From the NCBI GenBank assembly GCA_964389365.1, contig CAYMDO010000009.1, positions 3,576 to 67,575 on the forward strand: DNA of 64,000 bases, given 5' to 3'. Of the stretch, positions 3,264 through 33,443 are shown piece after piece. The stretch's first letter is position 1. The number at the start of each line of letters is the position of its first letter. A model generated the notes under the pieces. That model had not been told where the DNA came from, did not search any database, and saw only the letters and a list, made by a program, of their open reading frames with translations. The stretch is from an uncultured Syntrophomonadaceae bacterium (GTDB lineage: Bacteria; Bacillota; Dethiobacteria; DTU022). Made by a program: the position numbers and the translations under genes.

Positions 3264-4247
3264 CTATTTTCCACCCATCAGCAGGACCATCAGGGCTTTT
3301 GACGTGTGCAGGCGGTTTTCGGCCTCATCGTAAACAATCGAGTGCGGGCCGTCTATAACGGCATCGACCACCTCGTTGCCCCGGTCGGCCGGCAGGGCAT
3401 GCATATAGTAAACATTCTCGTTGCCCATGGCGATTTTTTCTTCCGTGCAAATCCAGTGCTTATTGGCATCCAGCAGCTCGCTGCCCCGTTTGCCTTCCGG
3501 ATCGCTAACCCAGCTGCCCCAGTTCTTGGGGATCACTACATCTGCGTCCCTGTAAGCAGCCTCCATATCGTTGGTGATTGTCAGCGAGCCTCCGTGTTTT
3601 TTGGCGTTGGCCTCGGCCTGCCCGATCACCCAATCAGGCATTTCATAACCCTTCGGGTAAGCCAGCCAGACATCCATCCCGTAGCGGGGGAAGAGCAGCG
3701 CCTGCGAAAGAGGCACCGAAATCGGCTTTTTGTGGCTGGTAGCATAAGCCCAGATAATAGAAACTTTTTTCTGCTTCAGATCATCCATCTTCTCCTGCAT
3801 GGTCATCAGGTCGGCGATAGCCTGCAGCGGGTGATACAGGTCGCACTGCATATTGATCACCGGCACCGTGGAGTTTTCGGCCATTTCCCGCAAATACTTG
3901 TTGCCGGTCTCCCAGAAACAGTTTCGGCAGGCGATGGCGTGCCCGTAGCGCGAGAGGATGATTGCCGTATCCTTGGCCACCTCGCCGTGCGAAATCTGCA
4001 TTGTGCCGGTATCAAGATAGTTGGCGTGGCCGCCCAGCTGGGCGATGCCCGCCTCCATTGAATTCCTTGTCCTGGTCGATTGCTCAAAAAACATTAAAAA
4101 GATCGTTTTATTTTCAAGATAGGAAGTGCTGAGGCCCATTGCAAATTTCTTCTTAAGATCGAAAGACACCTCCAGCAGGGTGTCGATTTCTTCTTTCGTC
4201 CAATCCTGCAGGGTAATAAAATGCTTGTTCTTAAAACAGGTCTGCAT
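3264..4247 (-). CDS. ygeW: YgeW-type knotted carbamoyltransferase (OTCase/ATCase fold)
   Basis: STRTR motif, HPLQ and ornithine/aspartate carbamoyltransferase-like domains. Start ATG at 4247 (M95 of the track ORF), preceded by AAGGAG. Confidence 0.8.
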   Translation of the reverse strand: MQTCFKNKHFITLQDWTKEEIDTLLEVSFDLKKKFAMGLSTSYLENKTIFLMFFEQSTRTRNSMEAGIAQLGGHANYLDTGTMQISHGEVAKDTAIILSRYGHAIACRNCFWETGNKYLREMAENSTVPVINMQCDLYHPLQAIADLMTMQEKMDDLKQKKVSIIWAYATSHKKPISVPLSQALLFPRYGMDVWLAYPKGYEMPDWVIGQAEANAKKHGGSLTITNDMEAAYRDADVVIPKNWGSWVSDPEGKRGSELLDANKHWICTEEKIAMGNENVYYMHALPADRGNEVVDAVIDGPHSIVYDEAENRLHTSKALMVLLMGGK

Positions 4248-4266
4248 GTGGCTCACTCCTTGATTT

Positions 4267-5475
4267 TCATAAGTATTTATGACTATATAGAAAAGGGATC
4301 GCCGCGTACATGGCGGCCGCCCTGACCAGCTCGCTCTTCCAGGTTTTTTCGTCGGGAGCGTGAGCCTGGTCTTCGTGCCCCGGCCCAAAACCGACACAGG
4401 GTATATTATAGAGTCCCATGATCGAAACGCCGTTGGTCGAAAAAGTCCACTTATCAAGCAGGGGCTCGCTGCCAAAAAATCCTTTATATGCTTCAACCAG
4501 CGTGAGGACCGCGGGATGATCTTTTTCAATAACCCATGCCGGGAAATATGCTTTAGTCGGGTAAACCAAACTGGTGTAGGACGGGCGGTTATAGTCGTAG
4601 AGATCTACAGTGGCCCCGGCGGCCCTGATGGCAGGCAGCTTCTCAATCTGCCTAATGGCCTTTTCCGCCGTTTCACCGCGCGTCAAACGTCGATCGATTG
4701 AAATCGAACAGCCGTCAGCCACGGCACAGCGCGAAGGCGAACTGTAGAATATTTCGGAAACGGTCAGCGAACCGGGGCCTAAGAAATCGTCTTCACCCAG
4801 GTTTTCGTTCAAAGCCCGCAATTCGGTAAGAATCGGCGCCATCTTGTAAATGGCGTTATCGCCGCGCTCCGGCGCAGAACCGTGGCAGCTCAGGCCCCTT
4901 GTTGCCACTTTTATTTCCATCCGGCCGCGTTGTCCAAGGTGGATATTGCAGGAAGTGGGCTCGGTCAGCACTACCATTTCAGGCCGGATTTTACTTTCGC
5001 CAATAATATACTGCCAGCAGAGCCCGTCGCAATCTTCTTCCTGAACAGTACCGGTGAGCAGAAGAGTGTAATCACCGCCCAGGCCCAGCTCGTTAATTAT
5101 TTTTGCGCCGTAAACCATGGCTGCCATGCCGCCCAGCTGATCGGAAACTCCCCGGCCGACAATCACTTCATCATCTTCAAAGCCTGCCAGCGGGTCGTAT
5201 TCCCAGAGATCGGGATCGCCCACGCCAACATTATCAATGTGGGCATCAAACGCGATCAGGTGGCTGCCCCGGCCGGCATATCCGAGAATATTGCCCATCG
5301 CATCCACTTCTATCCGCTCCAGGCCAACCTTCTCCATTTCCTCCCGAATCCTGGCTATCCGCAAGGCCTCGCCGGCGCTTTCAGCCGGTATTGCCGCCAT
5401 ATCCCTTAAAAACTTGGCCATTTCAGCTTTATATGCTTCCGCCCGCCGATAAATCTTTTCAAAATCAGGGTACAT
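4267..5475 (-). CDS. ygeY: YgeY-type M20 family peptidase/deacylase
   Basis: M20/ArgE/DapE-like motifs. Synteny with ygeW. Confidence 0.8.
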
Positions 5476-5515: not shown

Positions 5516-5992
5516 TCAGCCCTGTTCTTCTTCCAGGGCCTTTTCCACGGCTGTAATAATTTTCTGGTAACCGGTGCAGCGGCAGAGATGCCCGGCCAAC
5601 TCTCTTTTTATTTCATTTCTGGTATAACTCCTGCCGCCTGCCGCTATAGCCGAAGCTGTAACCACGAAACCCGGGGTACAAAACCCGCACTGCACCGCGC
5701 CCTCGCCGACGAAGGCTTTTTGCACTTTTGAAAGCTCGCCCCCGGCGGCAAGACCTTCAACGGTTGTAATCACCCTGCCATCGGCCCAGACTCCAAGGTA
5801 AAGGCAGGCATTGAGGGGAACTCCGTCAACCATAACAGTGCAGGCCCCGCATTCGCCAACGCCACAGCCTTCCTTGGCGCCGGTCAAATGCAATCTTTCC
5901 CTCAGGATTTCAAGGAGTGTTTCCCCGGCACTGATTTCCAGTTCATAGTTCCTGCTGTTTATGGTTACGCTTATTCTTTTATGCACTTTCAA
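5516..5992 (-). CDS. xdhC: xanthine dehydrogenase-family [2Fe-2S] subunit
   Basis: CGxGxCGAC and CGFCTPG 2Fe-2S motifs. 158 aa. Confidence 0.85.
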   Translation of the reverse strand: MKVHKRISVTINSRNYELEISAGETLLEILRERLHLTGAKEGCGVGECGACTVMVDGVPLNACLYLGVWADGRVITTVEGLAAGGELSKVQKAFVGEGAVQCGFCTPGFVVTASAIAAGGRSYTRNEIKRELAGHLCRCTGYQKIITAVEKALEEEQG

Positions 5993-6863
5993 CCCCTCCT
6001 GCCCGGCCCGCCGCTATTTTCAGTGCCCTGGCCGTCAGCTCGGCAACCAGGTGCTCCCTGTATTCCCGCGAGGCCCTCCACGAGCTCCTGGGGCTGGCAT
6101 CTTTCAGGGCCAGTCTGCCGGCTTCTGCCAGGACCTCTTCGGTAACAGCCCTGCCCCGGGCATATTCTTCAGCCCTGCCGCAGCGCACCGGTGTAGGCGC
6201 GGCAACGCCCAGGCTGATATGCACCTCTTCAAAACACTGCTCTGCAGAAAGCCGGCAGGTAACTGCAACAGCGATCATCGCCAAATCCATCGCCCTGCGC
6301 GGCGCAAACTTGATGTAAGCGCCGCTCACCCCGCGGTAACTCTCTTCGTTAATCAATATCGCAGTAATCAGTTCGCCGGGCGCCAAATCCACCCGGCCCG
6401 GCCCGCGGTAAAACTCCTGGATCGGGACTAACCTGGCCCGATCTTTCGTTTGAACCCTGAGCCGCGCATCAAGGGCAAAGAGGGTCGGGGCGCTGTCTGC
6501 CGAAGGGGCGCCGCTGCAGATGTTGCCGCCAATTGTAGCCACAGCGCGCAGCTGGGGGCCGCCTACCGTCAACGCCACTTCGCTTAAGATCGGCAAATGC
6601 CCGGTGATCAGGGGGTCTGCGGCCAGGTCTCTAAAAGTTACCAGCGAGCCGATACTGATAGTATTATCGTCGAGCAGGCTGACTGCTTTCAGAGCTTCAA
6701 GTGACCTGATGCTGACCAGGCACACGCTGTTTGCCGGCTCTTCACGCATTCTGACCAAAAGGTCGGTTCCCCCGGCAATAACCCGGTAATCCGGGTGATT
6801 TGCCATCAATAAGAGCGCTTCATCCAGCGTTTGTGCTTCAACATAATCCTCCACATGAAACAT
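5979..6863 (-). CDS. xdhB: xanthine dehydrogenase-family FAD-binding subunit
   Basis: FAD_binding_5 / CO dehydrogenase flavoprotein-like (AGGTDL, TIGGNI). Start ATG at 6863 after AAGGGGG. Confidence 0.85.
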   Translation of the reverse strand: MFHVEDYVEAQTLDEALLLMANHPDYRVIAGGTDLLVRMREEPANSVCLVSIRSLEALKAVSLLDDNTISIGSLVTFRDLAADPLITGHLPILSEVALTVGGPQLRAVATIGGNICSGAPSADSAPTLFALDARLRVQTKDRARLVPIQEFYRGPGRVDLAPGELITAILINEESYRGVSGAYIKFAPRRAMDLAMIAVAVTCRLSAEQCFEEVHISLGVAAPTPVRCGRAEEYARGRAVTEEVLAEAGRLALKDASPRSSWRASREYREHLVAELTARALKIAAGRAGGVESA

Positions 6864-6864
6864 A

Positions 6865-9210
6865 TCAGCCACCCCCTTTAATCAATCCGGCTGCTTTAAA
6901 GTGCTCGAATGCGATCTGTGGCCTGATTGGAATCCGGTTTATGGAGACCCCTGTGGCGGCAAGCAGGGCATTGCGGATAGCCGGGGCAGGTGAAATAACC
7001 GGCGGCTCGCCGAGCGACTTATTGCCGTAAGGCGCGGTCGGCTCATAGGTTTCGATAAAATCAAGGCCGATTTCCGGCATGTCCATAATCGTAGGCAGCT
7101 TGTAGTCAAGCAGGTTGTTGTTTAGGATTCTCCCGCTATTCTGATCAAAAAGCAGCTCCTCGGAGAGAGCGTAACCGAGAGCCATGCTGACCCCTCCATG
7201 AACCTGCCCCTCAGCCAGCTGCCGGTTGATAATCGTTCCGGAATCGTGGACATTGAAGATTTCCAAAACCTCGATTTGTCCGGTCCTGATATCCACCTCG
7301 ACCGAGGTGAAAGTAACCCCGAAAGATATGGCATTTACTTTAGCGTTAATTGAAACATCACTGGTGATCGGCCGGGCTTCATCGCGATCGTAATAGCTGT
7401 GCAGGGCGGCTTCGGCCAGGGGCATGAATACCTGCCCTGAATCCACAGCAACAATATTGGCATCAATAATAGCCAGGGCCGCGGCCGGCTGACCGGTCAG
7501 CTCCCCGGCAAGCTTGAGCACCTTTTCCCTTATTTCAAGAGCCGCTTTCTTAACAGCCATCCCGGATATGTAAGTCTGGCGGGAAGCGTAACTGCCGGTG
7601 TCAAAAGGGCTGATATCGGTATCCTGGGTTGTAACCACATGCACGCTCCCGACCGGAATACCGATAGATTCGGCCGCCATCTGGGCTAAGACCGTGTCGC
7701 TGCCCTGACCGATCTCCGTTGCTCCCAGCTGCAGCTGAATTGAACCGTCCTGGTTGAGGACGATCCTGGCACCCGCCACTTCAAGGCAGGCCGGGTAGGT
7801 GCCTGATCCGTAGCTGAAACAGGCCATGCCCAGGCCCTTTCTTTTTACCCCGCCCTGCCTGTTCAAATTTTCAAATTGTACTTTTTTCAGATCCCAGCCG
7901 ATCAGTTCTTTTCCCCGCTTTATGCACTCCAACAAGCCAAAGCTTAAGATCCGGTTTCCGGAATGCGGGTCGCTGTAGCCAACCTGGTTCAGGTTTTTCA
8001 GACGCAGTTCCAGCGGATCGATCCCCATTTCCCGGGCAATATTATCAAGATGCGACTCCAGGGCGAAAGTGATCTGCGGCGAACCGTAAGCGCGCATCGC
8101 CCCGGCTACCGGCAAATTGGTGTAAACCGTGCGCGGCGCAAAACAGATTGTATCAAAATGATAAGTATATTTAAACTTGGAGCCTCCCGCCGCAATTACC
8201 GAGTGACCATGGGAGGCGTAAGCGCCGGTATTCGAGATAGCGTCAACCTTAATCCCCAACAGCTTGCCTTCGTTGTTAACGGCTGTCTCCAGCTTTATTT
8301 TTGTCGAATGCCTGGTCCTGGTGGAGGTCATATATTCTTCCCGGGAAAGTTCCAGTTTAACCGGCCTGCCGCCGACTGCCATAGTCATCGCCGCAACCAG
8401 CGGCTCCAGGCAGGCATCCTGCTTACCTCCAAAACCACCGCCGATGTATGGCTTGATGATCCTGATCCGCCCCCAGGGTATGCCCAGGGCCTGTCCGACG
8501 ATACGGCGGCAAATGTGCGGGATCTGGGTGGAGGAAACAATCACCAGCCGTTCATCGCTGTCAACGTAAGCGTAGGCAACATGGTTTTCAAGGGAGCAGT
8601 GCTGCGCGATTGCGGTTTCGAAGGTATTGGAAAATATTAGTTCCGCGTTTTTGGCGATTGCGTTATAGTCGCCAATATTGTAACCGGCAGCGCTGACCAG
8701 GTTGCTGCCACGATCCTCGTGCACCAGCGGAGCGCCCTCCTGCAGCGCTGCTTCCGCTGAAAACACCGGTTCCAGCACTTCGTAGTCAACTTCGATCAGT
8801 TTTAAGGCTTTTACGGCAGTAAGCTGATCAACAGCCACTACAGCGGCAATTTCATCGCCGACATAACGGGCTTTGGCAGCCAGGATTGTTTTGTCGGCTA
8901 CATCTCCGCGTGCAGGATCGATCGTATAGGGATGCCCGGCGGTCGGGTAACGGTATTGGGGTACATTTAAATGAGTTAGTACCGCTTCCACGCCGGGCAG
9001 TGCCGAAGCCTTCGTCGTGTCTATCGTCCTGACCCGGGCATGGGCGTAGGGACTGCGCAGAACCTTGCCGACCAGCATACCGCTTACAAAATGATCGCCG
9101 GCATAACAAGCTTTACCCGTCACCTTGGCCACAGCGTCCAAACGGGGAAAGCTTTTGCCGATACAGCCACCCGCCAAGGCGGATCTTTGTTTCTCTATAA
9201 TCGTTCCCAT
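6865..9210 (-). CDS. xdhA: xanthine dehydrogenase-family molybdopterin-binding large subunit
   Basis: 781 aa. Aldehyde oxidase/xanthine dehydrogenase a/b hammerhead and MoCo-binding domains (GGGFGGK). Confidence 0.85.
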   Translation of the reverse strand: MGTIIEKQRSALAGGCIGKSFPRLDAVAKVTGKACYAGDHFVSGMLVGKVLRSPYAHARVRTIDTTKASALPGVEAVLTHLNVPQYRYPTAGHPYTIDPARGDVADKTILAAKARYVGDEIAAVVAVDQLTAVKALKLIEVDYEVLEPVFSAEAALQEGAPLVHEDRGSNLVSAAGYNIGDYNAIAKNAELIFSNTFETAIAQHCSLENHVAYAYVDSDERLVIVSSTQIPHICRRIVGQALGIPWGRIRIIKPYIGGGFGGKQDACLEPLVAAMTMAVGGRPVKLELSREEYMTSTRTRHSTKIKLETAVNNEGKLLGIKVDAISNTGAYASHGHSVIAAGGSKFKYTYHFDTICFAPRTVYTNLPVAGAMRAYGSPQITFALESHLDNIAREMGIDPLELRLKNLNQVGYSDPHSGNRILSFGLLECIKRGKELIGWDLKKVQFENLNRQGGVKRKGLGMACFSYGSGTYPACLEVAGARIVLNQDGSIQLQLGATEIGQGSDTVLAQMAAESIGIPVGSVHVVTTQDTDISPFDTGSYASRQTYISGMAVKKAALEIREKVLKLAGELTGQPAAALAIIDANIVAVDSGQVFMPLAEAALHSYYDRDEARPITSDVSINAKVNAISFGVTFTSVEVDIRTGQIEVLEIFNVHDSGTIINRQLAEGQVHGGVSMALGYALSEELLFDQNSGRILNNNLLDYKLPTIMDMPEIGLDFIETYEPTAPYGNKSLGEPPVISPAPAIRNALLAATGVSINRIPIRPQIAFEHFKAAGLIKGGG

Positions 9211-10526
9211 AGCTTTGCAGCCAGCTCCCTTGCCAGGGCATTGATTTCCTTTTCGCTGATACCGGTCAGGGACCTGTCGCGCATCAATATGTTACCGGCG
9301 ACCAGTGTGGTTTCAACCATGCTGCCCGTCATCCCGAAAACCAAATGCCCGTAATAGTTTTCAGCCGTCAGGGGCGTAGGCGGATCATAGTCAGCCACAA
9401 TCAGGTCGGCCGCCGCTCCCGGAACCAGCTCCCCTGATGATACGGGGAAGAAATTGGCCATGATCTGCGGGTTATTCTCAAACTGCATCAAAGGGACTTC
9501 GGCCCAGCCGGCCCTGGGATCTTCCCGGCAGTGCTTCTGCAGGATATGCGCCGTTTTCATGCTTTCGATCATATCAGCGGTCATACCGTCTGTACCCAGG
9601 CCGAGCCTCACGCCGTTTTCGAGCATCCTGATCGCCGGCGCGCAGCCCACTGCGTTGTTCATGTTGGATTGCGGATTGTGGGCTGCATTGGTGCCGCTGC
9701 GGGCCAGGAGGCCTATTTCGGCATCGCTGATATGCACGCAGTGGGCTGCCAGGGTCTTGGGACCGAGCAAACCGTAACGGTCAAGCCGCTCCACTACGCC
9801 AATGCCGTATTTGTTTCGGCAGTGCTCGGCATCTTCGCGGCTCTCAGCCGCATGGATATGAACTCCCGAATCCAGGTCATGGGCAGCCCTGGCGCACTTT
9901 TCCATCGAGCCGGGACTGATGGTAAAAGAAGCGTGCATGCCAAAAGTTGCGGTCAGTTCCGCTGATTTTTCTTCACGGCACCGCCTGATAAAAGAAACGT
10001 TCTCTTCCAGGCCGGCCTCCATCTTTGATTCCCCGTCCCGGTCGCTTACCTCGTAACAAAGATTAGCCCTGATCCCCACATCGCGGGCGGCCCTGCCAAC
10101 CTGTTTCAGGCTGCCGGTGATCGCGTTGGGACAGGCAATGTGGTCCAACACCGTTGTCGTGCCATTTTTAATGCAGTCGATAAAAGTAACAAGGGCACTG
10201 TAATAAACATCCTCAGTCGTCAGGGCCTGGTCAAGCCTCCACCATAAACGCTCCAGGACCTGGGGGAAACTGGCGGGCGGTTCGCCTTTGAGAGCCATCC
10301 CGCGCGCAAAAACGCTGTAGGTGTGGGTGTGGGCGCAGGTAAACCCCGGCATGATCAGCTTGGCTGAACAATCGATAAAATCGGCACCGGGTGCAGCTTT
10401 CCGCAATTCTGCCGTATCACCCACCCCGGCAATTATCGGCCCGTCGATCAGGACCGCTCCCCGGTTAATAACCCGGCAGTGCTGACCGAGGGTCAGCACA
10501 GTTCCGTTTCCCAATAGCAGCATCAT
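9195..10526 (-). CDS. ssnA: SsnA-type putative aminohydrolase (amidohydrolase superfamily)
   Basis: Close match to E. coli SsnA (LWWRLDQAL, HAAE, NPQSNMNN, GTDG). Confidence 0.8.
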   Translation of the reverse strand: MMLLLGNGTVLTLGQHCRVINRGAVLIDGPIIAGVGDTAELRKAAPGADFIDCSAKLIMPGFTCAHTHTYSVFARGMALKGEPPASFPQVLERLWWRLDQALTTEDVYYSALVTFIDCIKNGTTTVLDHIACPNAITGSLKQVGRAARDVGIRANLCYEVSDRDGESKMEAGLEENVSFIRRCREEKSAELTATFGMHASFTISPGSMEKCARAAHDLDSGVHIHAAESREDAEHCRNKYGIGVVERLDRYGLLGPKTLAAHCVHISDAEIGLLARSGTNAAHNPQSNMNNAVGCAPAIRMLENGVRLGLGTDGMTADMIESMKTAHILQKHCREDPRAGWAEVPLMQFENNPQIMANFFPVSSGELVPGAAADLIVADYDPPTPLTAENYYGHLVFGMTGSMVETTLVAGNILMRDRSLTGISEKEINALARELAAKLWERL

Positions 10527-13338
10527 ACTGCACTACCTCTTTTCCTTTCAGCGCCTTCAGGATTTTATCTTTCGTAGCCGGAAGCTCGCTGATCCAAACC
10601 CCGACTGCGTCATGGATGGCATTGATAATTGCCGGGGCGGTCGGGTTAAGCGGCAGTTCGCCCATGCCCTTGGCTCCGTACGGACCCTCCGCTGCTTCTT
10701 CAACCAATATGATATCCATATCCGGCACATCAGTTATTTTCGGCAGCCGTAGCTTTTTAAAGCTGTCGGTTACCGGAAAACCGTTTTCCAGGATAAACTC
10801 TTCGCTCAGACCGTAACCGAGGCCCATCGCTACTGCGCCTTCGATCTGGCAGCGGCAGTTCTGCGGATGGATCGCTCTGCCCAAATCCTGGGCTGCAATA
10901 ATTTTCAATACTTTTACTGTGCCCTCCTGCTGATCGACTTCGACCACCGCCGCCTGGACCGCGTAACAGTAGGCAAAATGCACATTATACTGCTCAAGTG
11001 CGATACCGTCTTCATGATCGGCCCTTTCCCGCAGAGGGTAAGTTAGAGGGGCGGTATAGAGATATGACCCGCTGAGGGTGAGCCCCAGCTGTGCAGCAGC
11101 CGCGGCAATTTCCCTGAACGGGATAAACCTGTTGTTTCCATTCCCGGTTACAGCGCTCACTCCACCGCTCTGCGGCCTGTATTGCCCTCCCCTGACCTTA
11201 AAACCCTGAAGCAGGCAGCGTTCAAAAACTGCCATAAACTCCCGGGCCGCTCCCATAACAGCGTACCCGGAAATATAGGTCTGACGCGAGGCGGTAGTAA
11301 CTCCCCCTGCCGGCGTCAGCCCGGTATCGTTTGAAACAACAATAAAATCCTCATAAATAAGACCTGTTTCGCCAGCTGCCACCTGGGCCAGCAGAGTATC
11401 AGAACCCTGCCCCATATCGGCAGCGCCAACTTTAAGCAAAAGCTTACCCTGACGATCTATCTCGATGGCCGCAGCGGCCTGGTCAACCTTACCGGCCCCG
11501 AGGCCGACATTCTTGTAGGCGCCGGCGATCCCGGCCCCGACCTTGCTGCCAGGCGCCGACTTCTTAGGCAGCTGCCTCAGGTATTCCTGCAGCGCTTTTT
11601 CGACGGCAGCAAGCGCCTGCTGGTAGCCGCAGTCAGCGGCAACCACCTGTCCGGTTATCGTTGTTTTGCCCGGGGCCAGGCCGTTGATCCTGCGCAGCTC
11701 AAATGGGTCAATCTTCAAGGCTTCTGCCAGCCTGTCCATCTGCAGCTCGGAGCCAAAAGCAACCTGTGTGGTGCCGAAGCCCCTGAAAGCCCCTGCCGGC
11801 GGGTGGTTGGTGTAAACCCCATATGAGTCGGTTTTAACATTGGGGATGTCATAAGGTCCTGCTGCTGTTATTCCGGCACGGAAGACCACCGGTTTGCTGA
11901 GCGACTCGTAAGCCCCTGCATCCAGCATGACCCTGGCCTCAATGGCCGTGATCCTGCCATCTATGGTTGCCCCGTGTTTATAGTACATTTTCGCCGGGTG
12001 CCGTTTGGTCGATACGGCCAGCGATTCGCCGCGGGTCAAGGTCATCTTAACCGGCCGGCCGGTCAGGTAGGCGCCGAGGGCACAGTGGATCTGTACCGTC
12101 GGCTCTTCCTTGCCGCCAAATGCCCCGCCGGCAGGGGTATAAATAACCCGCACTTTGTTAACAGGCAGCTTCAGGCTTTCAGCAATCATATCGCGAAAAG
12201 CAAAGGAACCCTGACTGGCAGTCCAAACAGTAACTGCCCCGTCATCTTCCAACCGGGCCAGGGCTGATTCCGGCTCGAGGTAAGCATGTTCAACCATCGG
12301 GGTGCTGTACTCACCTTCAATGATCACATCGGCAGCGGCAAACGCTTTTTCCGTATCGCCCCTGCGTACGGATATATGCTGTACCAGGTTGCCGCCGGGG
12401 TGCAAGGCCGGCACGCTTTCGCGCATTCCAACATCCGCAGCGAAAATACCAGGCAGCTCATCATAATCGACATCAATCAACGACAGGCCGGCCTGCGCCG
12501 CTGCTTCACTTTCAGCCAGGATTAACGCCACCGCTTCGCCGCTGTACCTGACCCGGCCATCAGCAAGAACCGGCTGGTGGGGGTTAAGGAGGCCAAACCC
12601 ATTACGGCCAGGGATATCAGCAGCCGTCAGAATTCTGACCACCCCGGGTGCAGAGAGAGCTCTCTGCGGATCAATCCTCTTAATCCTGGCAGACGGGTAA
12701 CGGCTGAGCAGCAGTTTCCCGTAAATCATATTTTCGAATGTCAGATCGTCGGCATAGATAGGTTTACCGGTTACCTTGGGCAGGGCGTCTTTGCGGGGCG
12801 GGGAACTGCCAATGCCCGCTTCAAGAGCCGGTCCACCGGCTGCAGTCACGGCAACCGGAGAAGCCGCTTCACCCCTGATAATTGCAGCGGCAAGCTTTAC
12901 CGCCCTAATGATCGCTGCGTAGCCAGTACAGCGGCAATAGTTATGCCGCAAAGCTTCTTTAATCTCTGCTTCTGTCGGGCAAAGGTTCACATCAAGGAGC
13001 GCCTTGGCACTCATGATCATACCGGGGGTGCAAAACCCGCACTGCACTGCGCCTTCGCTGATGAAAGCTTCCTGCAGAGGATGCAGGCGGTCTCCAACCG
13101 TTAAATTTTCGATAGTTTCGATCTCGCTGCCGCCCAGCCTGTCTAGCTTTAAAAGGCAGGCCCGCCTAACCCGGCCATTTACGATAACCGTGCAGCTGCC
13201 GCAGTGGCCCTTATTACAGCCGTTCTTGGTTCCCATTAAACCGAGACGATCCCTTAAATATGGCAACAGGGTTAACTCACCGGAATACCCGGTTTGGTAC
13301 ATCACGCCGTTAACCCGAAAAGTGATCTTTTCAGCCAT
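10465..13338 (-). CDS. xdhD: XdhD-like fused [2Fe-2S]/molybdopterin hydroxylase (candidate selenium-dependent Mo hydroxylase)
   Basis: N-terminal 2Fe-2S motifs (CNKGHCGSC, CGFCTPG) fused to a ~800 aa MoCo domain. ATG at 13338 follows AGGTG. Confidence 0.8.
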   Translation of the reverse strand: MAEKITFRVNGVMYQTGYSGELTLLPYLRDRLGLMGTKNGCNKGHCGSCTVIVNGRVRRACLLKLDRLGGSEIETIENLTVGDRLHPLQEAFISEGAVQCGFCTPGMIMSAKALLDVNLCPTEAEIKEALRHNYCRCTGYAAIIRAVKLAAAIIRGEAASPVAVTAAGGPALEAGIGSSPPRKDALPKVTGKPIYADDLTFENMIYGKLLLSRYPSARIKRIDPQRALSAPGVVRILTAADIPGRNGFGLLNPHQPVLADGRVRYSGEAVALILAESEAAAQAGLSLIDVDYDELPGIFAADVGMRESVPALHPGGNLVQHISVRRGDTEKAFAAADVIIEGEYSTPMVEHAYLEPESALARLEDDGAVTVWTASQGSFAFRDMIAESLKLPVNKVRVIYTPAGGAFGGKEEPTVQIHCALGAYLTGRPVKMTLTRGESLAVSTKRHPAKMYYKHGATIDGRITAIEARVMLDAGAYESLSKPVVFRAGITAAGPYDIPNVKTDSYGVYTNHPPAGAFRGFGTTQVAFGSELQMDRLAEALKIDPFELRRINGLAPGKTTITGQVVAADCGYQQALAAVEKALQEYLRQLPKKSAPGSKVGAGIAGAYKNVGLGAGKVDQAAAAIEIDRQGKLLLKVGAADMGQGSDTLLAQVAAGETGLIYEDFIVVSNDTGLTPAGGVTTASRQTYISGYAVMGAAREFMAVFERCLLQGFKVRGGQYRPQSGGVSAVTGNGNNRFIPFREIAAAAAQLGLTLSGSYLYTAPLTYPLRERADHEDGIALEQYNVHFAYCYAVQAAVVEVDQQEGTVKVLKIIAAQDLGRAIHPQNCRCQIEGAVAMGLGYGLSEEFILENGFPVTDSFKKLRLPKITDVPDMDIILVEEAAEGPYGAKGMGELPLNPTAPAIINAIHDAVGVWISELPATKDKILKALKGKEVVQYDAAIGKRNCADPRSALPGY

Positions 13339-13505
13339 GAGATTCACCTATTAAAGATTATTCTAATAAAACCGGCATATTCCTGCCACAGGAATATTTT
13401 GCCCGTTCTTTCACTTTAATCACCGGGCAGGAATTCTTGTTGCAAACTCGAAATATGGTCGGTAAGCAATCCAGCCGTCGTATAAAGCGGAAGGGAGTTT
13501 TACCG

Positions 13506-15230
13506 ATGAGCGACCGGATGAGAACAATCCCTTTTGGAAAGCTGGTAAACTGGATACTTGAGGAATACCGGCGAGAAAAAACGATATTTGGCATATCGGA
13601 AAAAGCATTTTATAGGACAACTGTAGAAAAGGCGCTCTATATTCATGGCGAGAAGCTGGGCAGCCCCATCGGCCCTGCAGCTGGCCCCCATACCCAGCTG
13701 GCTCAAAACCTGGCTGCCGCCTACCTTTGCGGTGGCCGCTATTTTGAGCTGAAGACCGTACAGGTTCTTGACTGCCTCAATTTTGCCAAGCCCTGCATAA
13801 ATGCCGCTGACGAAGGTTATAACACTGAATGGTCCACCGAACTTTCGATCGAAGAAGCGCTCAGTGAATATATCAAGGGCTGGTTTCTCCTTCATCTTTT
13901 GGCCGGGGAGCTATTTGATCTGGAGCAGCGCGACTTTGTATTCAACATGAGCATCGGCTATAACCTGGAAGGGATCCGTTCGGCAAAGGTAGATCGTTTT
14001 ATCGAGGGGATGAAAAATGCCTCTTCAACAGAGACCTTTAACCAGTGCCGGGCAGTGCTGCATAAAGAAGCAGGCCGCTTTAATAAGATTTCCGGCCATT
14101 ACGTTGACAGCATCAACCCGCAAATTTGCCAATCGGTCGCCTTATCCACCATGCACGGCTGCCCGCCGTCTGAAATAGAGGCGATCAGCAAGCACCTGTT
14201 GCTTGAAAAGAGGTTGCATACTACGGTGAAGCTGAACCCTACCCTGCTGGGCTATGATTTTGTGCGCAGCACCCTGGACCGGATGGGCTACGGCTACATC
14301 AGGCTAACCGAAGAAACTTTTACAAAGGACCTGCAGTACAGCGATGCGCTGCCGCTGCTCGATCGGCTGATTTCCCTGGCCGCTGAAAGCAATCTTGAGT
14401 TTGCAGTAAAAGTGTCGAACACGCTGCCGGTCATGGTAGCCCGCGCTGAATTGCCTGGGGAACAGATGTACCTTTCCGGCAGACCGCTTTACGCTTTAAC
14501 CATCAGCCTTGCCGAGCGTTTGGCGGGTGATTTTGGAGACAAGCTGAAAATTTCTTTTTCCGGCGGTGCCGACCGGACCAATACCGCAGCCATTCTGGAA
14601 ACCGGTATTTCACCGGTAACCATGGTCACAACCCTGCTAAAACCAAGTGGTTACCGACGCTTACAGAAGCTGGCGGAAATTGCCGGACAGGTGGAAGGCA
14701 GGGGGGCTGCCGATGGAATTAACCTGGACCGTTTGAAAACAGCCGCCGCTGCCGCAGTTGATGCGCCCGCCTACCGAAAAAAAGAAACAGGTGCCGTTCA
14801 GAAACCCGCCGGGGAGCTCCCTCTCTTTGACTGCAGGGGTTCGTGCGGCATCTGCGTAGCAGTCTGCCCGAACAGGGCGAATGTAACCGTTTCTGTCCGG
14901 GGCGCTAATTTTAAATTTGAGCGCCAGATCCTGCACTTAGACGGAAGCTGCAATGAATGCGGCAACTGTGCTACCTTTTGCCCGGAAATAGGCAGGCCTT
15001 ACCTGGAAAAGCCAACTCTTTTCCGCGATCATGCTGACTTCGAAGCCAGCAGCAACAGCGGTTTTGTGATCATTGGCGACGGGTTTGGGGCTTATACCAG
15101 AGTAAGGGTTAAAGATCGTATTTTTGTTTTGCCACCCGGGCATAGTGAAAAAGAAGCCCCGGCGGTTTGCGATCCGGCTTTTATTCAGCTGCTTGGGGCC
15201 TTCCACGATAATTATTTATATTTATGCTAA
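13506..15230 (+). CDS. ygfK: YgfK-like Fe-S protein, short form lacking the central GltD-like FAD/NAD(P) oxidoreductase module
   Basis: The N-terminus matches E. coli YgfK (RTIPFGKL, GPAAGPHTQLAQN, TEWSTE, STMHGCPP, KLNPTLLGY). The C-terminus matches the YgfK ferredoxin tail (CPNRANV, CNECGNCATFCP). No GxGxxG dinucleotide-binding region is present. Confidence 0.75.
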   Translation: MSDRMRTIPFGKLVNWILEEYRREKTIFGISEKAFYRTTVEKALYIHGEKLGSPIGPAAGPHTQLAQNLAAAYLCGGRYFELKTVQVLDCLNFAKPCINAADEGYNTEWSTELSIEEALSEYIKGWFLLHLLAGELFDLEQRDFVFNMSIGYNLEGIRSAKVDRFIEGMKNASSTETFNQCRAVLHKEAGRFNKISGHYVDSINPQICQSVALSTMHGCPPSEIEAISKHLLLEKRLHTTVKLNPTLLGYDFVRSTLDRMGYGYIRLTEETFTKDLQYSDALPLLDRLISLAAESNLEFAVKVSNTLPVMVARAELPGEQMYLSGRPLYALTISLAERLAGDFGDKLKISFSGGADRTNTAAILETGISPVTMVTTLLKPSGYRRLQKLAEIAGQVEGRGAADGINLDRLKTAAAAAVDAPAYRKKETGAVQKPAGELPLFDCRGSCGICVAVCPNRANVTVSVRGANFKFERQILHLDGSCNECGNCATFCPEIGRPYLEKPTLFRDHADFEASSNSGFVIIGDGFGAYTRVRVKDRIFVLPPGHSEKEAPAVCDPAFIQLLGAFHDNYLYLC

Positions 15231-15251
15231 CCCGAATGGGTAAAATGAGAG

Positions 15252-16487
15252 GTGGCTGAAATCATGGAGCAAGCCATAAAATGGGTCGAAAAAACTGCAC
15301 GGTTGGTTCCGGGTCATCCGGAAGCAGGCACGCTCGATTTTGTAAACCAGGCTGCTGCAGGGGAGACCCGTGCCTTTATTAAAAGTTTCCCTCAATATGA
15401 GGTAACGCCCCTTAAAGCGCTGACAGAACTGGCAGCCTATCTGAATGTTGCCGGAATCTACGTCAAAGATGAATCCTTCCGATTCGGCCTTAACTCTTTT
15501 AAGGTCCTGGGAGGCGGCCACGCAGTTGGCCGTTACCTGCTCAAACGCCTCGGGAAACAGCAGAGCAGCTTTTCATACGAGGAGCTAAAATCTCCGGAAA
15601 TAAGGACAAAGCTGGGGGAGATAACTTTTACATCAGCCACCGACGGCAATCACGGCCGCGGGGTGGCCTGGGCTGCCCGGCAGCTTGGACACCGGGCAGT
15701 AATCAATATGCCGAAGGGTTCATCACCAATCCGTCTGGCCCATATAACAGCAACCGGTGCTGAAGGCTATATTACTGCTGTGAATTATGATGAAACGGTT
15801 AGGCTGACTGCAGAAAAAGCCAGGCAGGAAGGCTGGGTGGTGGTTCAGGATACCGCCTGGGAAGGGTATGAAGAGATTCCGGCCTGGGTTATGCAGGGAT
15901 ACACAGTGATGGCAGACGAAGCGCTGGAACAGCTGAACCAGTTGAGGGTCGGGCGACCGACCCATATCTTTATCCAGGCCGGGGTCGGCTCGCTGGCCGC
16001 AGCAGTACTCGGTTACTACGCCTCCCGCTTCGCAGATCAAAGGCCTGTAAATATTATAATCGAACCGGATAAAGCCGACTGCTTTTACCGCTCCGCCCTG
16101 GCCGGCGATGGAAAACCGCGGAATGTCACCGGTGACATGGATACAGTCATGGCCGGGCTGGCCTGCGGAGAACCTAACCCGAAAGCCTGGAAAATACTTA
16201 AGTATATTACCGACATCTATTTCTCGTGCCCTGACTATGTTGCAGCTACCGGCATGCGTATTTTGGGCAACCCCTTAAGCGGTGACCCGGCCGTTGTATC
16301 CGGCGAATCAGGTGCAGTAACTACAGGGTTACTATACGATCTGCTGCTGAACGATAAACTTAAGGAAGCAAGGGAAAAGCTAAAGCTGGGGCAGGATTCA
16401 AAGATCTTGCTCTTCAGCACCGAGGGAGATACCGATCCAATAATGTACCGCCGGATTGTCTGGCAAGGCGCTTACCAGCACCCCTGA
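15252..16487 (+). CDS. ygeX: diaminopropionate ammonia-lyase (PLP-dependent), YgeX
   Basis: Strong match to E. coli YgeX (TDGNHGRGVAWAA, VVQDTAWEGY, EPDKADC, GLACGEPN, STEGDTD). Confidence 0.85.
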   Translation: MAEIMEQAIKWVEKTARLVPGHPEAGTLDFVNQAAAGETRAFIKSFPQYEVTPLKALTELAAYLNVAGIYVKDESFRFGLNSFKVLGGGHAVGRYLLKRLGKQQSSFSYEELKSPEIRTKLGEITFTSATDGNHGRGVAWAARQLGHRAVINMPKGSSPIRLAHITATGAEGYITAVNYDETVRLTAEKARQEGWVVVQDTAWEGYEEIPAWVMQGYTVMADEALEQLNQLRVGRPTHIFIQAGVGSLAAAVLGYYASRFADQRPVNIIIEPDKADCFYRSALAGDGKPRNVTGDMDTVMAGLACGEPNPKAWKILKYITDIYFSCPDYVAATGMRILGNPLSGDPAVVSGESGAVTTGLLYDLLLNDKLKEAREKLKLGQDSKILLFSTEGDTDPIMYRRIVWQGAYQHP

Positions 16488-16780
16488 TTCCTCCTCTATC
16501 CGAACTGCCTGCCAACAGAAAGAACAGGGGCGACTGAAGAAACGCATCTAGGTCGGCCTGCTTTACGGTTCCGGTACCCATAAGAGCGTCTCAGTCGGCA
16601 GCGCGCTGCGGCGGCCCGGGTATTCCGGTAACGAGGAAGATCTCTGCTTACGAATTATTTCCTTAATGAGCCACAAATAATAAAGATGCTAAAGCACACA
16701 TTTTGAGTTTTAACACCATTTTTTCATTTTTATTCCTAAAGACATGTCACATCCTTACAGCACAAAAAAAATCAAAAAAA

Positions 16781-16809
16781 TTGACAAATTAAATAGAATA
16801 TTATAGAAT
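16781..16809 (+). promoter_or_regulatory. sigma-A-type promoter TTGACA-17-TAGAAT with upstream A-tracts, driving the GntR/sugar operon
   Basis: TTGACA at 16781-16786, a 17-nt spacer, then TAGAAT at 16804-16809, about 45 nt before the GntR start. Confidence 0.45.
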
Positions 16810-16852
16810 ATAGCTTGTAATGACAGGATAACATAATGAAGGGATGTATTGA

Positions 16853-17680
16853 ATGGAAAGTAAAAATAGTAGCAGATATATCGACAAGAATAGTATTATT
16901 CCTTATTATCACCAGTTAAAAGAACAACTAAAATTTTATTTTGAAGAAAATAATTTAAATGAAGGCGATCAGATTCCCTCAGAAGCTGAACTTTGTCGGT
17001 CTTATGGTGTTAGTCGGACGGTAGTACGGCAGGCAATTACTGATCTGTTTAATGAAGGTTTGCTTTTCCGTCAGAAGGGAAAGGGTACTTTTATTGCAAG
17101 ACCAAAAATTATTGGCAGTCTGATGCAGAATTTGAATGGTTTTTATAAAGATATGATGGTTAAGGAGTTTAAAACAAGATCTGAGATCCTTGACTTTTCA
17201 ATAGTTGATGCACCTAAAAAGATCGCTAACAGGCTCCAGCGTGAAGTGGGAGAGAAATTATTTAAAATAGATCGACTCCGCTATGTCAACGATGAACCAA
17301 TTGTTTGTGTTATTTCTTACATCCCCTACAGTCTTTGCCCCGAACTTATCAATGAAGACCTCGCCAATCAGTCACTCTACGCAGTCATGGAAGAAAAGTT
17401 TAACTTAAAAATTGCCTCTAGTCGCCGGTCTATAGAGGCGGTAGGGGCGACAGAGGAAATTGCTGTTCTGATGGATATAGAATACTGCGCACCGGTATTT
17501 TTGCTAAAAAGCATTAGTTATCTAGATAACGGAATGCCGGTTGAATATTATGAAGCCAGGCACCGGGGCGATCGAATCGGCTTCGAGGTCGAGATAATAA
17601 ACCAAAAAAATTCCAATCACCATGATAGTGCCGATCTGAGTTTTCAGGTAATGAACCTATCTGATCATAAGCAAGTATAG
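16853..17680 (+). CDS. GntR-family transcriptional regulator (HutC/FarR subfamily with UTRA effector domain)
   Basis: N-terminal wHTH (LPSEAELCRSYGVSRTVVRQAI) plus a C-terminal UTRA-like domain. Confidence 0.85.
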   Translation: MESKNSSRYIDKNSIIPYYHQLKEQLKFYFEENNLNEGDQIPSEAELCRSYGVSRTVVRQAITDLFNEGLLFRQKGKGTFIARPKIIGSLMQNLNGFYKDMMVKEFKTRSEILDFSIVDAPKKIANRLQREVGEKLFKIDRLRYVNDEPIVCVISYIPYSLCPELINEDLANQSLYAVMEEKFNLKIASSRRSIEAVGATEEIAVLMDIEYCAPVFLLKSISYLDNGMPVEYYEARHRGDRIGFEVEIINQKNSNHHDSADLSFQVMNLSDHKQV

Positions 17681-17802
17681 AGGAAGCAACACTTTGCTGA
17701 AATCGCGAAGGGGGTGTTTGATGAATAATTGACAGGCAGGTAAGAGTTTGGGTACAAGGAAGTTTGTTAGGCAGCAAGAATTATAAAGAGGAGGAACATG
17801 GC

Positions 17803-18972
17803 GTGAACAGAAAGTTCAATATTTTAATGCTGATTTTTGTTGTTACGATATTTGGGCTTCTCATTATTGGCTGTGCACCGGATACCCCTGCAGAACCACC
17901 GGTTGACGAAGATGAGGCGGTTTTGGAAAAAATCGTTATCGGTTGGACTCCACCTGACATAACCGGAGTTTTTAAGACGGCAACCGAATACTTCGAGCTG
18001 GCTGCTGAAGATGCCGGTAAGTATGGCATAGAAGTCGAAGTGATATCACGTTCTCCGGCTACCCATGTTGCCTTTGCAGACCAGGTAGCCATTATCGAAG
18101 ATTATATCACTATGGGTGTCGATGTAATTGCTATTTCGCCCATTGAGGTGGAAGTAGTCAAGCCGGCGCTCCAGCAGGCTAACGCGGCGGGGATCCCCAT
18201 AATTATGGTCAACCTTTTAGAGCCAATTGCTGATGTGGATATCGCCTGCTATATCGGGTTCGACAACTTTGATGGCGCAGCCATCACAGCCTATTCGATG
18301 GTAGATTACTTCGGCGGACCTGGAGTCTTAGGTGAGGGCGAAAAAGTTGATGTAACGCCCGAAACTTATCTTGACCTGGCTTGGTGGGAAAGCATTTATG
18401 CTGATGCTGATCCTGCAGCGCTGAATCTTGAGGCTCGGGGAGCGATCATCGAAGGTGTGGCCGGAGGCTTTTTCTCCGTTACCCGTGTAGAAGGCTTCCG
18501 CTCAGTAATAGACAAGTTTCCAGGTATCGTTGAAGTTATGGAGCCCATTCCAGCTGACTGGAACAGGGAAAAGGGTATCGCAGCTGCGGAGGACATTTTG
18601 GCCGCCAACCCTAAAGGAACCCTGGATTGGATCTGGGCTGCCTCTAACGAAATGGGCATGGGAGCCAGGCTTGCCTGTGAAACAGCAGGCAGGACCGAAG
18701 TAGTTGTCTTTACAAATGATGTTACACCGGAATCAGTTCTTGAGTTTATCAATAAGGATCGCATAGTCGCAGAAACTACACACGGTTTTCCCGATTGGGG
18801 ATGGTTTGGAACCAAGTATGCTGTTATGTTGGCGCTCGGTTTGGATGTGCCGCAGTTTGAAGATATTCGGCCACGTACTGCTTACAAAGACAACAGCCAT
18901 ATGTTCTACCCAGAACCAGTTTTGCCACCTATTGATTGGGAAGAAATTCTAGTAAATGCAGGAGTGAAGTAA
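17803..18972 (+). CDS. sugar ABC transporter substrate-binding lipoprotein (PBP type I / CUT2-like)
   Basis: GTG start after AAGAGGAGG. Signal peptide plus lipobox LIIGCAP. Periplasmic-binding-protein fold. Confidence 0.8.
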   Translation: MNRKFNILMLIFVVTIFGLLIIGCAPDTPAEPPVDEDEAVLEKIVIGWTPPDITGVFKTATEYFELAAEDAGKYGIEVEVISRSPATHVAFADQVAIIEDYITMGVDVIAISPIEVEVVKPALQQANAAGIPIIMVNLLEPIADVDIACYIGFDNFDGAAITAYSMVDYFGGPGVLGEGEKVDVTPETYLDLAWWESIYADADPAALNLEARGAIIEGVAGGFFSVTRVEGFRSVIDKFPGIVEVMEPIPADWNREKGIAAAEDILAANPKGTLDWIWAASNEMGMGARLACETAGRTEVVVFTNDVTPESVLEFINKDRIVAETTHGFPDWGWFGTKYAVMLALGLDVPQFEDIRPRTAYKDNSHMFYPEPVLPPIDWEEILVNAGVK

Positions 18973-18981
18973 CCAGCGGTA

Positions 18982-19008
18982 ATAGGGGGGGGGGTAATGC
19001 CCCCCCTA
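18982..19008 (+). terminator. G10/C6 hairpin (intra-operon attenuator/terminator) between the SBP and ATPase genes
   Basis: ATAGGGGGGGGGGTAATGCCCCCCTAT inverted repeat immediately after the SBP stop. Confidence 0.45.
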
Positions 19009-19181
19009 TATACTACCTGCCTCTCAGCCTTCAGCTGAGTTTAGCAGCACATTAATATATGGCTAGCGATATTAAATTTCCAAACTTAATATGGCAATTA
19101 TAGCCAACAATGATGTTGTCTGGCATTGTGGTAAAAGTAAGCAGCTAACCTTTAGTATGTTCACGTAAAGGAGAGTCGATT

Positions 19182-21726: not shown

Positions 21727-21775
21727 TTAACAGCAGCATATTGTAACTAAGCTAAATTAATAGGGAGGTTCCGTT

Positions 21776-22537: not shown

Positions 22538-22573
22538 TCCGAGAAATAATCGGTTTGCTTCTCGCTGGAGGGA

Positions 22574-23452: not shown

Positions 23453-23475
23453 AATGAACGATTAGGAGGAATTTA

Positions 23476-25296: not shown

Positions 25297-25553
25297 TTGA
25301 TATTTCGGTAAAATATACCGGTCTGATCAGGAGTATAGCCGTCAGCAGCGAAGAGAAATGGACGGTTAAAGATGAGGCCACCTTGGAAGAACTGCTGGTG
25401 GCAGTTGCATCAAAATATCACGTAAAGTTAGATGACAGTGCTAAGTTTATTGTTGTCTATAACGACCATGGTATCAGCTTTGATCAGTGGTCCGAACAGG
25501 TTCTCCAAAATAACGACAAGGTGCTTATCCTGCCATCAATTTCGGGAGGTTAA
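25293..25553 (+). CDS. MoaD/ThiS-family small beta-grasp protein with C-terminal Gly-Gly (AOR-associated)
   Basis: 86 aa ending ...PSISGG. Overlaps the AOR stop by 4 bp. Confidence 0.6.
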   Translation: MIDISVKYTGLIRSIAVSSEEKWTVKDEATLEELLVAVASKYHVKLDDSAKFIVVYNDHGISFDQWSEQVLQNNDKVLILPSISGG

Positions 25554-25555
25554 CA

Positions 25556-28645: not shown

Positions 28646-28679
28646 CGAATTATTTCCTGATTACATTAGGAGAGGATCA

Positions 28680-30230: not shown

Positions 30231-30274
30231 TTAGTAACAAATTAAGCAGCTAAAAAAGAAGAAAGGGGTTACAA

Positions 30275-30928: not shown

Positions 30929-30952
30929 TATAGCCAGGAGGCTTGTGAGACG

Positions 30953-31825: not shown

Positions 31826-31879
31826 ATTACGCAACAGCCGATTATTAAGGGATTAATTAGGCCGAGAGGAGGTTTTGCC

Positions 31880-32449: not shown

Positions 32450-32531
32450 CCGTTGATGTTGATATTTAAGCAATTTAATACCTATTAATGGGAGTATATA
32501 TTAGGGCTTCCTGAATGAAAGCCTAATTAAA

Positions 32532-33440: not shown

Positions 33441-33443
33441 ATG

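Follow-up and report, generated by a model that had tools for sequence, protein, structure and literature searches.

Ring-reducing enzymes of the anaerobic uric acid pathway

In the anaerobic 2,8-dioxopurine pathway, which was elucidated only in 2025 and is of medical interest with respect to gout, hyperuricaemia and probiotic design, uric acid is converted by XdhD or XdhAC into 2,8-dioxopurine, the ring of which is opened by SsnA after its reduction (PMC12507026; bioRxiv 10.1101/2025.04.24.650524). The reduction is carried out in Escherichia coli by YgfK, which depends on NAD(P)H and dearomatises 2,8-dioxopurine, also called isoxanthine or "yanthine" (PMC12507026 / bioRxiv 10.1101/2025.05.19.654654; bioRxiv 10.1101/2025.04.24.650524). 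2,8-Dioxopurine builds up in ygfK mutants of both E. coli and Clostridium sporogenes, and modelling of E. coli YgfK suggested a flavin mononucleotide (FMN) site for substrate reduction and a site with flavin adenine dinucleotide (FAD) for NAD(P)H, in an arrangement resembling that of dihydropyrimidine dehydrogenase (DPD) (PMC12507026; bioRxiv 10.1101/2025.04.24.650524). Herein, we describe a YgfK of only 574 residues, devoid of the flavoprotein module that accepts electrons from NAD(P)H, encoded in a 64-kb stretch of DNA from an uncultured Syntrophomonadaceae bacterium (contig CAYMDO010000009.1; the whole stretch is hereafter called the window).

Besides the NAD(P)H-dependent YgfK, the published versions of the ring-reducing step comprise a PF01180-type protein, UacX, and a putative F420 enzyme (PMC12507026; bioRxiv 10.1101/2025.04.24.650524). 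UacX of Clostridioides difficile (Q181U4) was proposed to be a ferredoxin-dependent 2,8-dioxopurine reductase replacing YgfK in the uricolytic cluster, and C. difficile XdhD, which lacks YgfM, was also proposed to be ferredoxin-dependent (PMC12507026). For PydAc of Clostridium chromiireducens, a DPD without the FAD/NADPH domains, reduced ferredoxin or methyl viologen has been demonstrated as the electron donor (PMC7332683). A module-less YgfK is undescribed in the literature searched on the uric acid pathway. The short YgfK would be a fourth version of this step and is a common one, accounting for roughly a fifth of the sampled family diversity, and by analogy with PydAc it appears mechanistically unsurprising.

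Domain architecture of the short-form YgfK

The coding sequence of the short YgfK (574 aa plus stop; 13506..15230, plus strand) was delimited from the list of open reading frames (ORFs), its match to the N-terminal part of the NCBIfam profile TIGR03315, a two-segment BLASTP alignment with E. coli YgfK and an identical gene call (P0001/L002). It is enclosed in an ORF spanning 13437..15230 (+), and the ATG at 13506 was regarded as the true start because it is preceded by a Shine-Dalgarno sequence, GAAGGGAG (13490..13497, +; 8 nt before the ATG, read from the sequence), because the homologues share the N-terminal start MSDRMR with the window protein, and because a separate gene call on a contig of the independent Logan assembly gave an identical 574-aa product.

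The initial annotation had stated that the flavoprotein module is precisely missing from this protein and that its two flanks are joined in frame, and both statements were borne out. Residues 2-443 matched positions 1-442 of TIGR03315 (Se_ygfK, 1012 positions) with 732.6 bits, so that the short YgfK falls below the curated whole-protein equivalog cut-off of 835.3 bits. In the pairwise comparison with E. coli K-12 YgfK (1032 aa), residues 1-465 aligned with E. coli 1-475 (45% identity, E 5e-129) and residues 441-573 aligned colinearly with E. coli 899-1026 (40% identity, E 2e-26), while E. coli residues 456-904 formed a gap between residues 443 and 447 of the window protein in an alignment of 121 sequences. 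The middle of E. coli YgfK carries the Pfam domains PF14691 Fer4_20 (453-532) and PF07992 Pyr_redox_2 (552-839), and the long-form profile at about 430-840 matched NfnA/NfnB, GltD and residues 69-509 of pig DPD; the missing part of about 450 residues is therefore a classic [4Fe-4S]2-FAD-NAD(P)H electron-input module of the GltD/NfnB/DPD type. A Pfam scan of the window protein detected neither Fer4_20 nor Pyr_redox_2 and returned 4Fe-4S dicluster models at residues 443-494 only, the Fer4_9, Fer4_7 and Fer4_10 matches each lying slightly under their own gathering scores. The predicted layout of an N-terminal YgfK domain followed directly by a 2x[4Fe-4S] tail was thus confirmed by Pfam and by alignment.

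The retained parts comprise a YgfK-specific N-terminal domain (residues 1 to about 430; 13506..14795, +), the junction (residues 443-447, C-RGS-C; 14832..14846, +), where the alignment places the Fer4_20 and FAD/NAD(P)H module of about 450 residues in the long forms, a 2x[4Fe-4S] dicluster ferredoxin domain (14832..14984, +) and a C-terminal tail (residues 494-574; 14985..15227, +) common to long YgfK (E. coli 956-1026) according to the second BLASTP segment. The dicluster domain, with its CPNRAN...CNECGNC motif, was assigned from the sub-threshold Pfam matches, from its eight Cys residues and from a profile search of the PDB, in which it matched FwdF and NuoI-type dicluster domains; in the tail, P498, Y499, K502 and G519 are conserved.

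At the junction, the window protein reads LPLFDC(443)-RGS-C(447)GIC(450)VAVC(454)PNRANV, i.e. LPLFDC-RGS-CGICVAVCPNRANV, the corresponding pattern of the long forms being LPLxDC-xxAPCxxGCP...[module]...RCLxC-xxxCxxCxxxCPNRANV. The in-frame joint accordingly falls within the first Cys motif of the C-terminal dicluster domain, and the Cys that opens Fer4_20 in the long forms serves as the first ligand of the dicluster motif in the window protein. The resulting pattern, C-x3-C-x2-C-x3-CP followed by the canonical C-x2-C-x2-C-x3-CP, provides eight ligands for two clusters (C443, C447, C450, C454 and C482, C485, C488, C492). Among the lineages of short forms, the junctions vary.

Fold and conservation of the N-terminal domain

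An AlphaFold2 model of the short YgfK, built with 120 homologues, showed high confidence (mean predicted local distance difference test score of 90.8, predicted template modelling score of 0.93) and alternating strands and helices over residues ~45-400. In a Foldseek search against the PDB, pig DPD gave the best matches (7lju, 1h7w and 1gte; E ~1e-8, probability 1.0), the alignments of about 560-580 columns covering both the barrel and the ferredoxin domain, and class-2 dihydroorotate dehydrogenases (DHODHs) were interspersed near the top of the list with target-normalised TM scores of about 0.6. These structural predictions indicate that residues 1 to about 430/440 of YgfK form a divergent DHODH/DPD-type (beta/alpha)8 flavin barrel and are not a passive scaffold.

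The conservation pattern pointed in the same direction. About 60 positions of the N-terminal domain are invariant in short, intermediate and long YgfK, including G56-x-A-A-G-P61, E81-x-K83, N147-x-S149, H217-G-C219, K242-x-N244-P245, N305-T306 and G353-G354, and all eight Cys residues are invariant or nearly so in short and long forms alike. The invariants are, as we take it, reminiscent of the strand-end FMN and substrate motifs of DHODH, and C97 and C219 are candidates for acid residues. The FMN and substrate site is predicted in this retained domain, because the Fer4_20 and FAD/NAD(P)H parts of E. coli YgfK occupy residues 453-839 according to Pfam. The initial annotation had described the protein as a pure Fe-S electron carrier; that description cannot be maintained for a protein three quarters of which is a conserved flavin-barrel domain with about 60 invariant positions.

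A link between the barrel and DHODH, DPD or PreA at the level of sequence was also sought and left unsupported, the relationship emerging from the fold search only. The PDB profile search returned ferredoxin-type chains only, with no barrel match to DHODH or DPD, hhalign against E. coli PreA gave a probability of 4%, and PF01180 (DHO_dh) did not match the window protein at E<=0.1. Three of ten other short forms gave faint colinear PF01180 matches below threshold (13-16 bits against a cut-off of 27). Since the barrel has no significant sequence match, the flavin assignment rests on the fold and on the published modelling of the long form.

Comparison with YgfK, PydAc, UacX and PreA

Relative to E. 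coli and C. sporogenes YgfK (DOPOR, NAD(P)H:2,8-dioxopurine oxidoreductase), the short YgfK has an orthologous N-terminal domain (45% identity) and an orthologous dicluster domain plus tail (40%), and the uricolytic gene context is common to both. Judging from its sequence, however, it would be incapable of oxidising NAD(P)H, as it lacks E. coli residues ~456-904 with the two clusters of Fer4_20 and the FAD and NAD(P)H domains.

PydAc provides the closest mechanistic parallel, as both proteins combine a DPD-type FMN barrel with one or more ferredoxin domains, lack FAD/NADPH domains and belong to a ring-reduction pathway of a strict anaerobe. They differ in that PydAc is a PF01180 protein that is 37% identical to pig DPD (PMC7332683), whereas the short YgfK is undetected by PF01180 and its substrate is presumably a purine. 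UacX likewise contains an FMN site and lacks an FAD domain, but is described as a PydA/PF01180 homologue, whereas short YgfKs fail PF01180. The identity of the short form with C. difficile UacX was rejected on this basis and on a homologue search with the short YgfK of Metaclostridioides mangenotii, in which no C. difficile protein occurred among the best 120 matches; given these two results, the short YgfK and UacX, the latter compared by its published description, represent analogous solutions that stem from separate lineages within the barrel superfamily. E. coli PreA, which works with PreT, and domains IV and V of pig DPD, the best structural match, similarly place a C-terminal 2x[4Fe-4S] domain after the barrel, although the sequence similarity to PreA is negligible and no PreT-like partner is encoded near short YgfK.

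Recurrence and origin of the short form

The short architecture, defined as the N-terminal and C-terminal domains with the middle absent, was found to be widespread in a survey of YgfK lengths. It accounted for 36/121 sequences in the closest homologue clusters (down to 48% identity), for 15/80 loci of GTDB species representatives, among which the best match had 63% identity, and for ~25/150 of the best representatives at 50% identity in an exhaustive HMMER scan. The GTDB short forms include those of Clostridium magnum DSM 2767, M. mangenotii DSM 1289, Anaerocolumna aminovalerica DSM 1283, Lutispora, Sedimentibacter, Filifactor and Anaerorhabdus, among others, and a second homologue search added Epulopiscium, Tissierellia, Treponema phagedenis and Entomospira, such that C. 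magnum, M. mangenotii and T. phagedenis offer the short form in cultured species. The NCBI label of the short forms is "selenate reductase", and many are nameless. One cluster of 583-aa short forms (P0226) comprises 2185 member sequences from ENA metagenome assemblies, and at least one carrier of the short-form YgfK is therefore very abundant in the sampled environments.

An assembly deletion as the origin of the window gene was excluded by this recurrence together with the Logan contig, which is 100% identical to the window over 10540-16678.

In a neighbour-joining tree over shared columns, the window protein fell into a clade of 34 short forms that is sister to forms of 864-883 aa, while two other short forms (from C. 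psychrophilum and a C. magnum-like organism) sat separately within long-form Clostridium clades. Parsimony on 190 sequences gave five changes between short and non-short states (bootstrap range 4-6), so that the short form appears to have arisen at least four times on these unrooted, distance-based trees (neighbour-joining/Fitch). Short forms occupy four or more separate places in the tree, two of which fall within long-form Clostridium clades, and this disfavours the short form as an ancestral state; the scattered positions, the differing junctions and one recent deletion favour loss of the module over its ancestral absence. The recent deletion is seen in C. psychrophilum (L005, 10001-11707) compared with C. 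estertheticum (L048, 10001-13018), in which a clean 1.3-kb in-frame segment is gone between flanks of 86% and 84% DNA identity in an otherwise syntenic cluster, making the two species a natural before-and-after pair for module loss.

The 864-883-aa proteins (P0035-P0047, P0052 and P0112; Desulfosporosinus metagenome-assembled genomes and others) represent an intermediate form, in which Fer4_20 and the FAD domain are kept and only the NAD(P)H Rossmann subdomain, equivalent to ~647-798 of the E. coli protein, is absent; the main group of them is the sister of the short-form clade of the window protein. The family thus comprises a graded series of long forms, forms without the NAD(P)H subdomain and short forms, illustrating the way in which the redox module is lost.

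Proposed role and electron supply of the short YgfK

The mechanism that we propose for the short YgfK is that of the catalytic core of a 2,8-dioxopurine reductase, acting at the second reductive step of the anaerobic uric acid pathway. Through the two retained [4Fe-4S] clusters, electrons would pass one at a time from the surface of the protein to the flavin, most likely FMN, which would in turn reduce the purine ring of 2,8-dioxopurine; SsnA, encoded across the divergent promoter, would then open the ring and thereby pull the reaction forward. Since the entry port for NAD(P)H is lost, the donor would be something other than NAD(P)H, and given the lack of both a pyridine-nucleotide site and a nearby partner gene, a general low-potential carrier is the most likely source of the electrons, reduced ferredoxin being the simplest candidate. 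We thus infer FMN as cofactor, 2,8-dioxopurine as substrate and ferredoxin as donor, and consider it probable that the short YgfK is a catalytic FMN/2x[4Fe-4S] 2,8-dioxopurine reductase fed by a low-potential carrier, with more confidence in the catalytic role than in ferredoxin as the donor.

The annotators had linked the short form to an exchange of electrons between the molybdenum hydroxylases and ferredoxin rather than NAD(P)H. Independence of NAD(P)H stood as a reasonable inference for YgfK itself, in view of PydAc (PMC7332683) and of UacX and XdhD (PMC12507026), whereas the route through the molybdenum hydroxylases did not: loss of the module alters the electron source of YgfK, not its role relative to the molybdenum enzymes, and XdhABC in the window retains its FAD subunit XdhB. 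The tungsten-type aldehyde:ferredoxin oxidoreductase (AOR) adduced in the same context is indeed encoded at 23476-25296 and clearly shows ferredoxin-type chemistry in the organism, yet its location in a separate low-GC island makes it weak support for the donor of YgfK.

Several points weigh against the proposed role. For every short form, the catalytic assignment draws on sequence, fold and analogy, and the sequence of the barrel does not match DHODH, DPD or PreA significantly. PydAc possesses two ferredoxin domains (16 Cys, four clusters) and the short YgfK one (8 Cys), so the geometry of the surface cluster may differ. The short form of C. psychrophilum, as a recent deletion, need not be functional. 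An NAD(P)H module acting in trans could be encoded elsewhere in the genome, of which the search covered 64 kb, and without hyuA and yqeA in the window the downstream pathway may differ.

A partner for the short YgfK was searched for at two levels. No second ORF for the module, the presence of which would have undone the reading of a short form, was found adjacent to ygfK or anywhere in the window: tblastn queries with E. coli YgfK 453-898, PreT, PreA, YgfM and YgfS yielded no match better than E 0.7, the negative results for YgfK 453-898 and PreT ruling out the missing module elsewhere in the window, and homologues of GltD, PreT and YgfM were absent from the window as well as from the 10-kb flanks of 18 other short-form loci. 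A conserved electron-partner gene was likewise rejected, as no carrier recurred when all ORFs up to 9 kb away from 19 short-form genes were clustered; the recurrent extra neighbours were a YheO-like regulator, permeases, RidA and ABC transporter/alcohol dehydrogenase genes.

Alternative explanations

These searches bear directly on the possibility of a split enzyme, with the short YgfK as its PreA-like half receiving electrons from NAD(P)H via a GltD/PreT/NfnB-like subunit encoded elsewhere. Such a division has precedents, as E. coli DPD is split into PreT and PreA, many bacterial PydA are two-ORF enzymes (PMC7332683) and free-standing GltD-like proteins (YgfT) are encoded near the E. coli cluster, and the space searched around the window gene amounted to 64 kb of the genome. 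The partner of PydA is, however, normally adjacent (2781/3419 PydA candidates; PMC7332683), whereas no partner gene was present in the window or within 10 kb of the 18 other loci, which represent several independent lineages; moreover, the intermediate form has lost the NAD(P)H subdomain only, suggesting that coupling to NAD(P)H was itself dispensable. A split enzyme was thus judged unlikely. We gave still less credence to direct coupling, in which the dicluster domain would dock on the FAD-less XdhD-like enzyme and/or XdhABC and electrons would pass without a soluble carrier. Co-clustering and divergent transcription of the genes speak for it, as do the lack of a pyridine-nucleotide module in both the XdhD-like enzyme and the short YgfK, the lack of a conserved carrier gene in the clusters, and the electron balance that would presumably hold between the oxidation of hypoxanthine/xanthine and the two reductive steps. 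Nevertheless, the docking is conjectural, some clusters that lack xdhABC contain short forms too, and XdhD, being itself a reductase in the pathway, would compete for electrons and not supply them. An equally doubtful extension of direct coupling would be a pyridine-nucleotide-free redox machine of YgfK, the XdhD-like enzyme and possibly XdhABC, in which the dicluster docks at the YgfM/FAD site or at that of the lost module and electrons from the hydroxylation of hypoxanthine/xanthine feed both reductive steps, which would amount to an internal dismutation of purines; the NAD(P)H module, in that case, would be a detachable plug-in, gained or lost according to redox economy, for which at least four losses were counted.

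That the short form is a decaying gene, i.e. a non-functional remnant of a deletion, finds a parallel in C. psychrophilum, the 1.3-kb loss of which relative to C. estertheticum demonstrates that spontaneous deletions occur. The clade of the window protein, however, holds 34+ clusters at 55-76% identity, all with an intact frame, the same junction, the eight Cys and the barrel invariants, and short forms make up 17-30% of the sampled family diversity within intact pathway clusters, which renders decay very improbable. A non-catalytic Fe-S carrier between ferredoxin and XdhD/XdhABC, as conceived at first, would accord with the 2x[4Fe-4S] domain and with the divergent arrangement next to an xdhD that lacks an FAD subunit. 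It is scarcely credible in the light of the DHODH/DPD-type barrel, which takes up ~440/574 residues and shares its ~60 invariants, needless for a carrier, with the characterised long form; furthermore, 2,8-dioxopurine builds up when ygfK is mutated in E. coli or C. sporogenes, which places YgfK after XdhD and not in a supporting role to it.

Taken as a catalytic reductase, the short YgfK would be a natural minimal enzyme, consisting of the barrel and two clusters, for the study of electron entry. Its recognition also matters for surveys: a 2025 metagenome survey of uricolytic capacity applied a BLAST filter of >=80% coverage, and because short forms lie below the TIGR03315 cut-off and below 80%-coverage filters, surveys can under-count or mis-score the organisms that carry them.

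Gene context of the short ygfK

The short ygfK forms part of a cluster in the order xdhD-ssnA-xdhABC-ygeY | ygfK-ygeX, with ygfK and ygeX divergent to the minus-strand genes. The divergent neighbour (10465..13347, -) encodes a fused [2Fe-2S] and molybdenum hydroxylase of 960 aa that resembles XdhD and clostridial XdhAC (NCBIfam TIGR03311, 748 bits, and others) and presumably acts as the reductase converting uric acid to 2,8-dioxopurine; it has no YgfM-type FAD subunit of its own, as tblastn with E. coli YgfM was negative across the window. It is followed by ssnA, encoding the aminohydrolase that would open the reduced purine ring (9195..10526, -; NF005540 with 595 bits and TIGR03314 with 573 bits, both above cut-off), and by xdhA (6865-9210), xdhB (the FAD subunit, 5979-6872) and xdhC (5516-5992), which occupy 5516..9210 (-) and exceed the cut-offs of the equivalogs NF043082, NF043083 and NF043084. 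Farther along lie ygeY, encoding the M20 hydrolase of the pathway (4267..5475, -; TIGR03526, 631 bits), and, at the position of ygeW, a gene for a carbamoyltransferase resembling ornithine carbamoyltransferase (3264..4529, -), the true start of which is probably near 4256. The latter protein is 33% identical to E. coli YgeW, as against 63-69% for YgeW in other short-form clusters. Directly 3' of the short ygfK, ygeX encodes a 2,3-diaminopropionate ammonia-lyase (15252..16487, +; TIGR03528, 591 bits, above cut-off).

The xdhD-like gene and ygfK diverge from an intergenic region of 158 bp that contains a perfect 9-bp inverted repeat, ATATTCCTG-cca-CAGGAATAT (13377..13397, read from the sequence), which is a candidate operator for a pathway regulator; an extra CAGGAAT half-site is located at 13430-13436, ~40 bp downstream of the repeat.

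The same gene order was found in a relative at 70% identity, and 16 of 19 short-form loci lie among ssnA, ygeX, ygeY, ygeW, hyuA, yqeA and xdhD-like genes. In the 64-kb window, hyuA (hydantoinase) and yqeA (carbamate kinase) were unrecognised, and the downstream steps of its pathway may differ or be encoded elsewhere. The window also encodes an extra amidohydrolase of 440 aa, which exceeds the cut-off of NF005557 (5'-deoxyadenosine deaminase), the guanine deaminase models falling below theirs.

Short YgfK-like genes were also observed outside uricolytic clusters, in Anaerocolumna (L041 and L044) and Lutispora (L046), their products having 42-45% identity with the window protein. The A. aminovalerica gene is flanked on one side by a gene for an amino-acid permease and on the other by one for an iron alcohol dehydrogenase, and a 4Fe-4S protein of 278 aa is encoded 3.6 kb downstream. 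These proteins of Anaerocolumna and Lutispora may act on a different substrate.

Other features of the window

Downstream of ygeX, a segment of ~16.5 kb (16800-33640) has a G+C content of 0.43-0.49, compared with 0.52-0.57 on either side. In addition to the AOR, it encodes a GntR regulator, a sugar ABC transporter, a short-chain dehydrogenase/reductase, two xylose-isomerase-like barrels, 2-hydroxyacid, GFO/IDH/MocA and Zn dehydrogenases, an FGGY kinase, a 2-keto-3-deoxy-6-phosphogluconate aldolase and a cupin-type glucose-6-phosphate isomerase, and it terminates at three tRNA genes (Arg-ACG, Ser-GCT and Ser-TGA; 33363-33640). In a syntenic relative (L003), the genes that separate ygeX from those for seryl- and arginyl-tRNA synthetases are different ones, a Y1 transposase gene among them. 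The segment looks like a variable or island-insertion site.

Near the start of the window, the neighbouring ORFs 468-905 and 869-1207, which differ in reading frame, appear by eye to be the N- and C-terminal parts of a pyridoxal phosphate enzyme of the 2-amino-3-ketobutyrate CoA ligase type with the middle missing, and 468-1207 may thus be a disrupted gene. A T-box leader (53350-53578, -; 108.5 bits) lies upstream of a block consisting of a class IV aminotransferase gene and ilvD, ilvB, ilvN and leuCD-like genes. At the far end, gyrA, gyrB, recF and dnaN are consecutive on the minus strand (55208-63885), with a further ORF toward the window end, and this row indicates that the window adjoins the region of the chromosomal replication origin.

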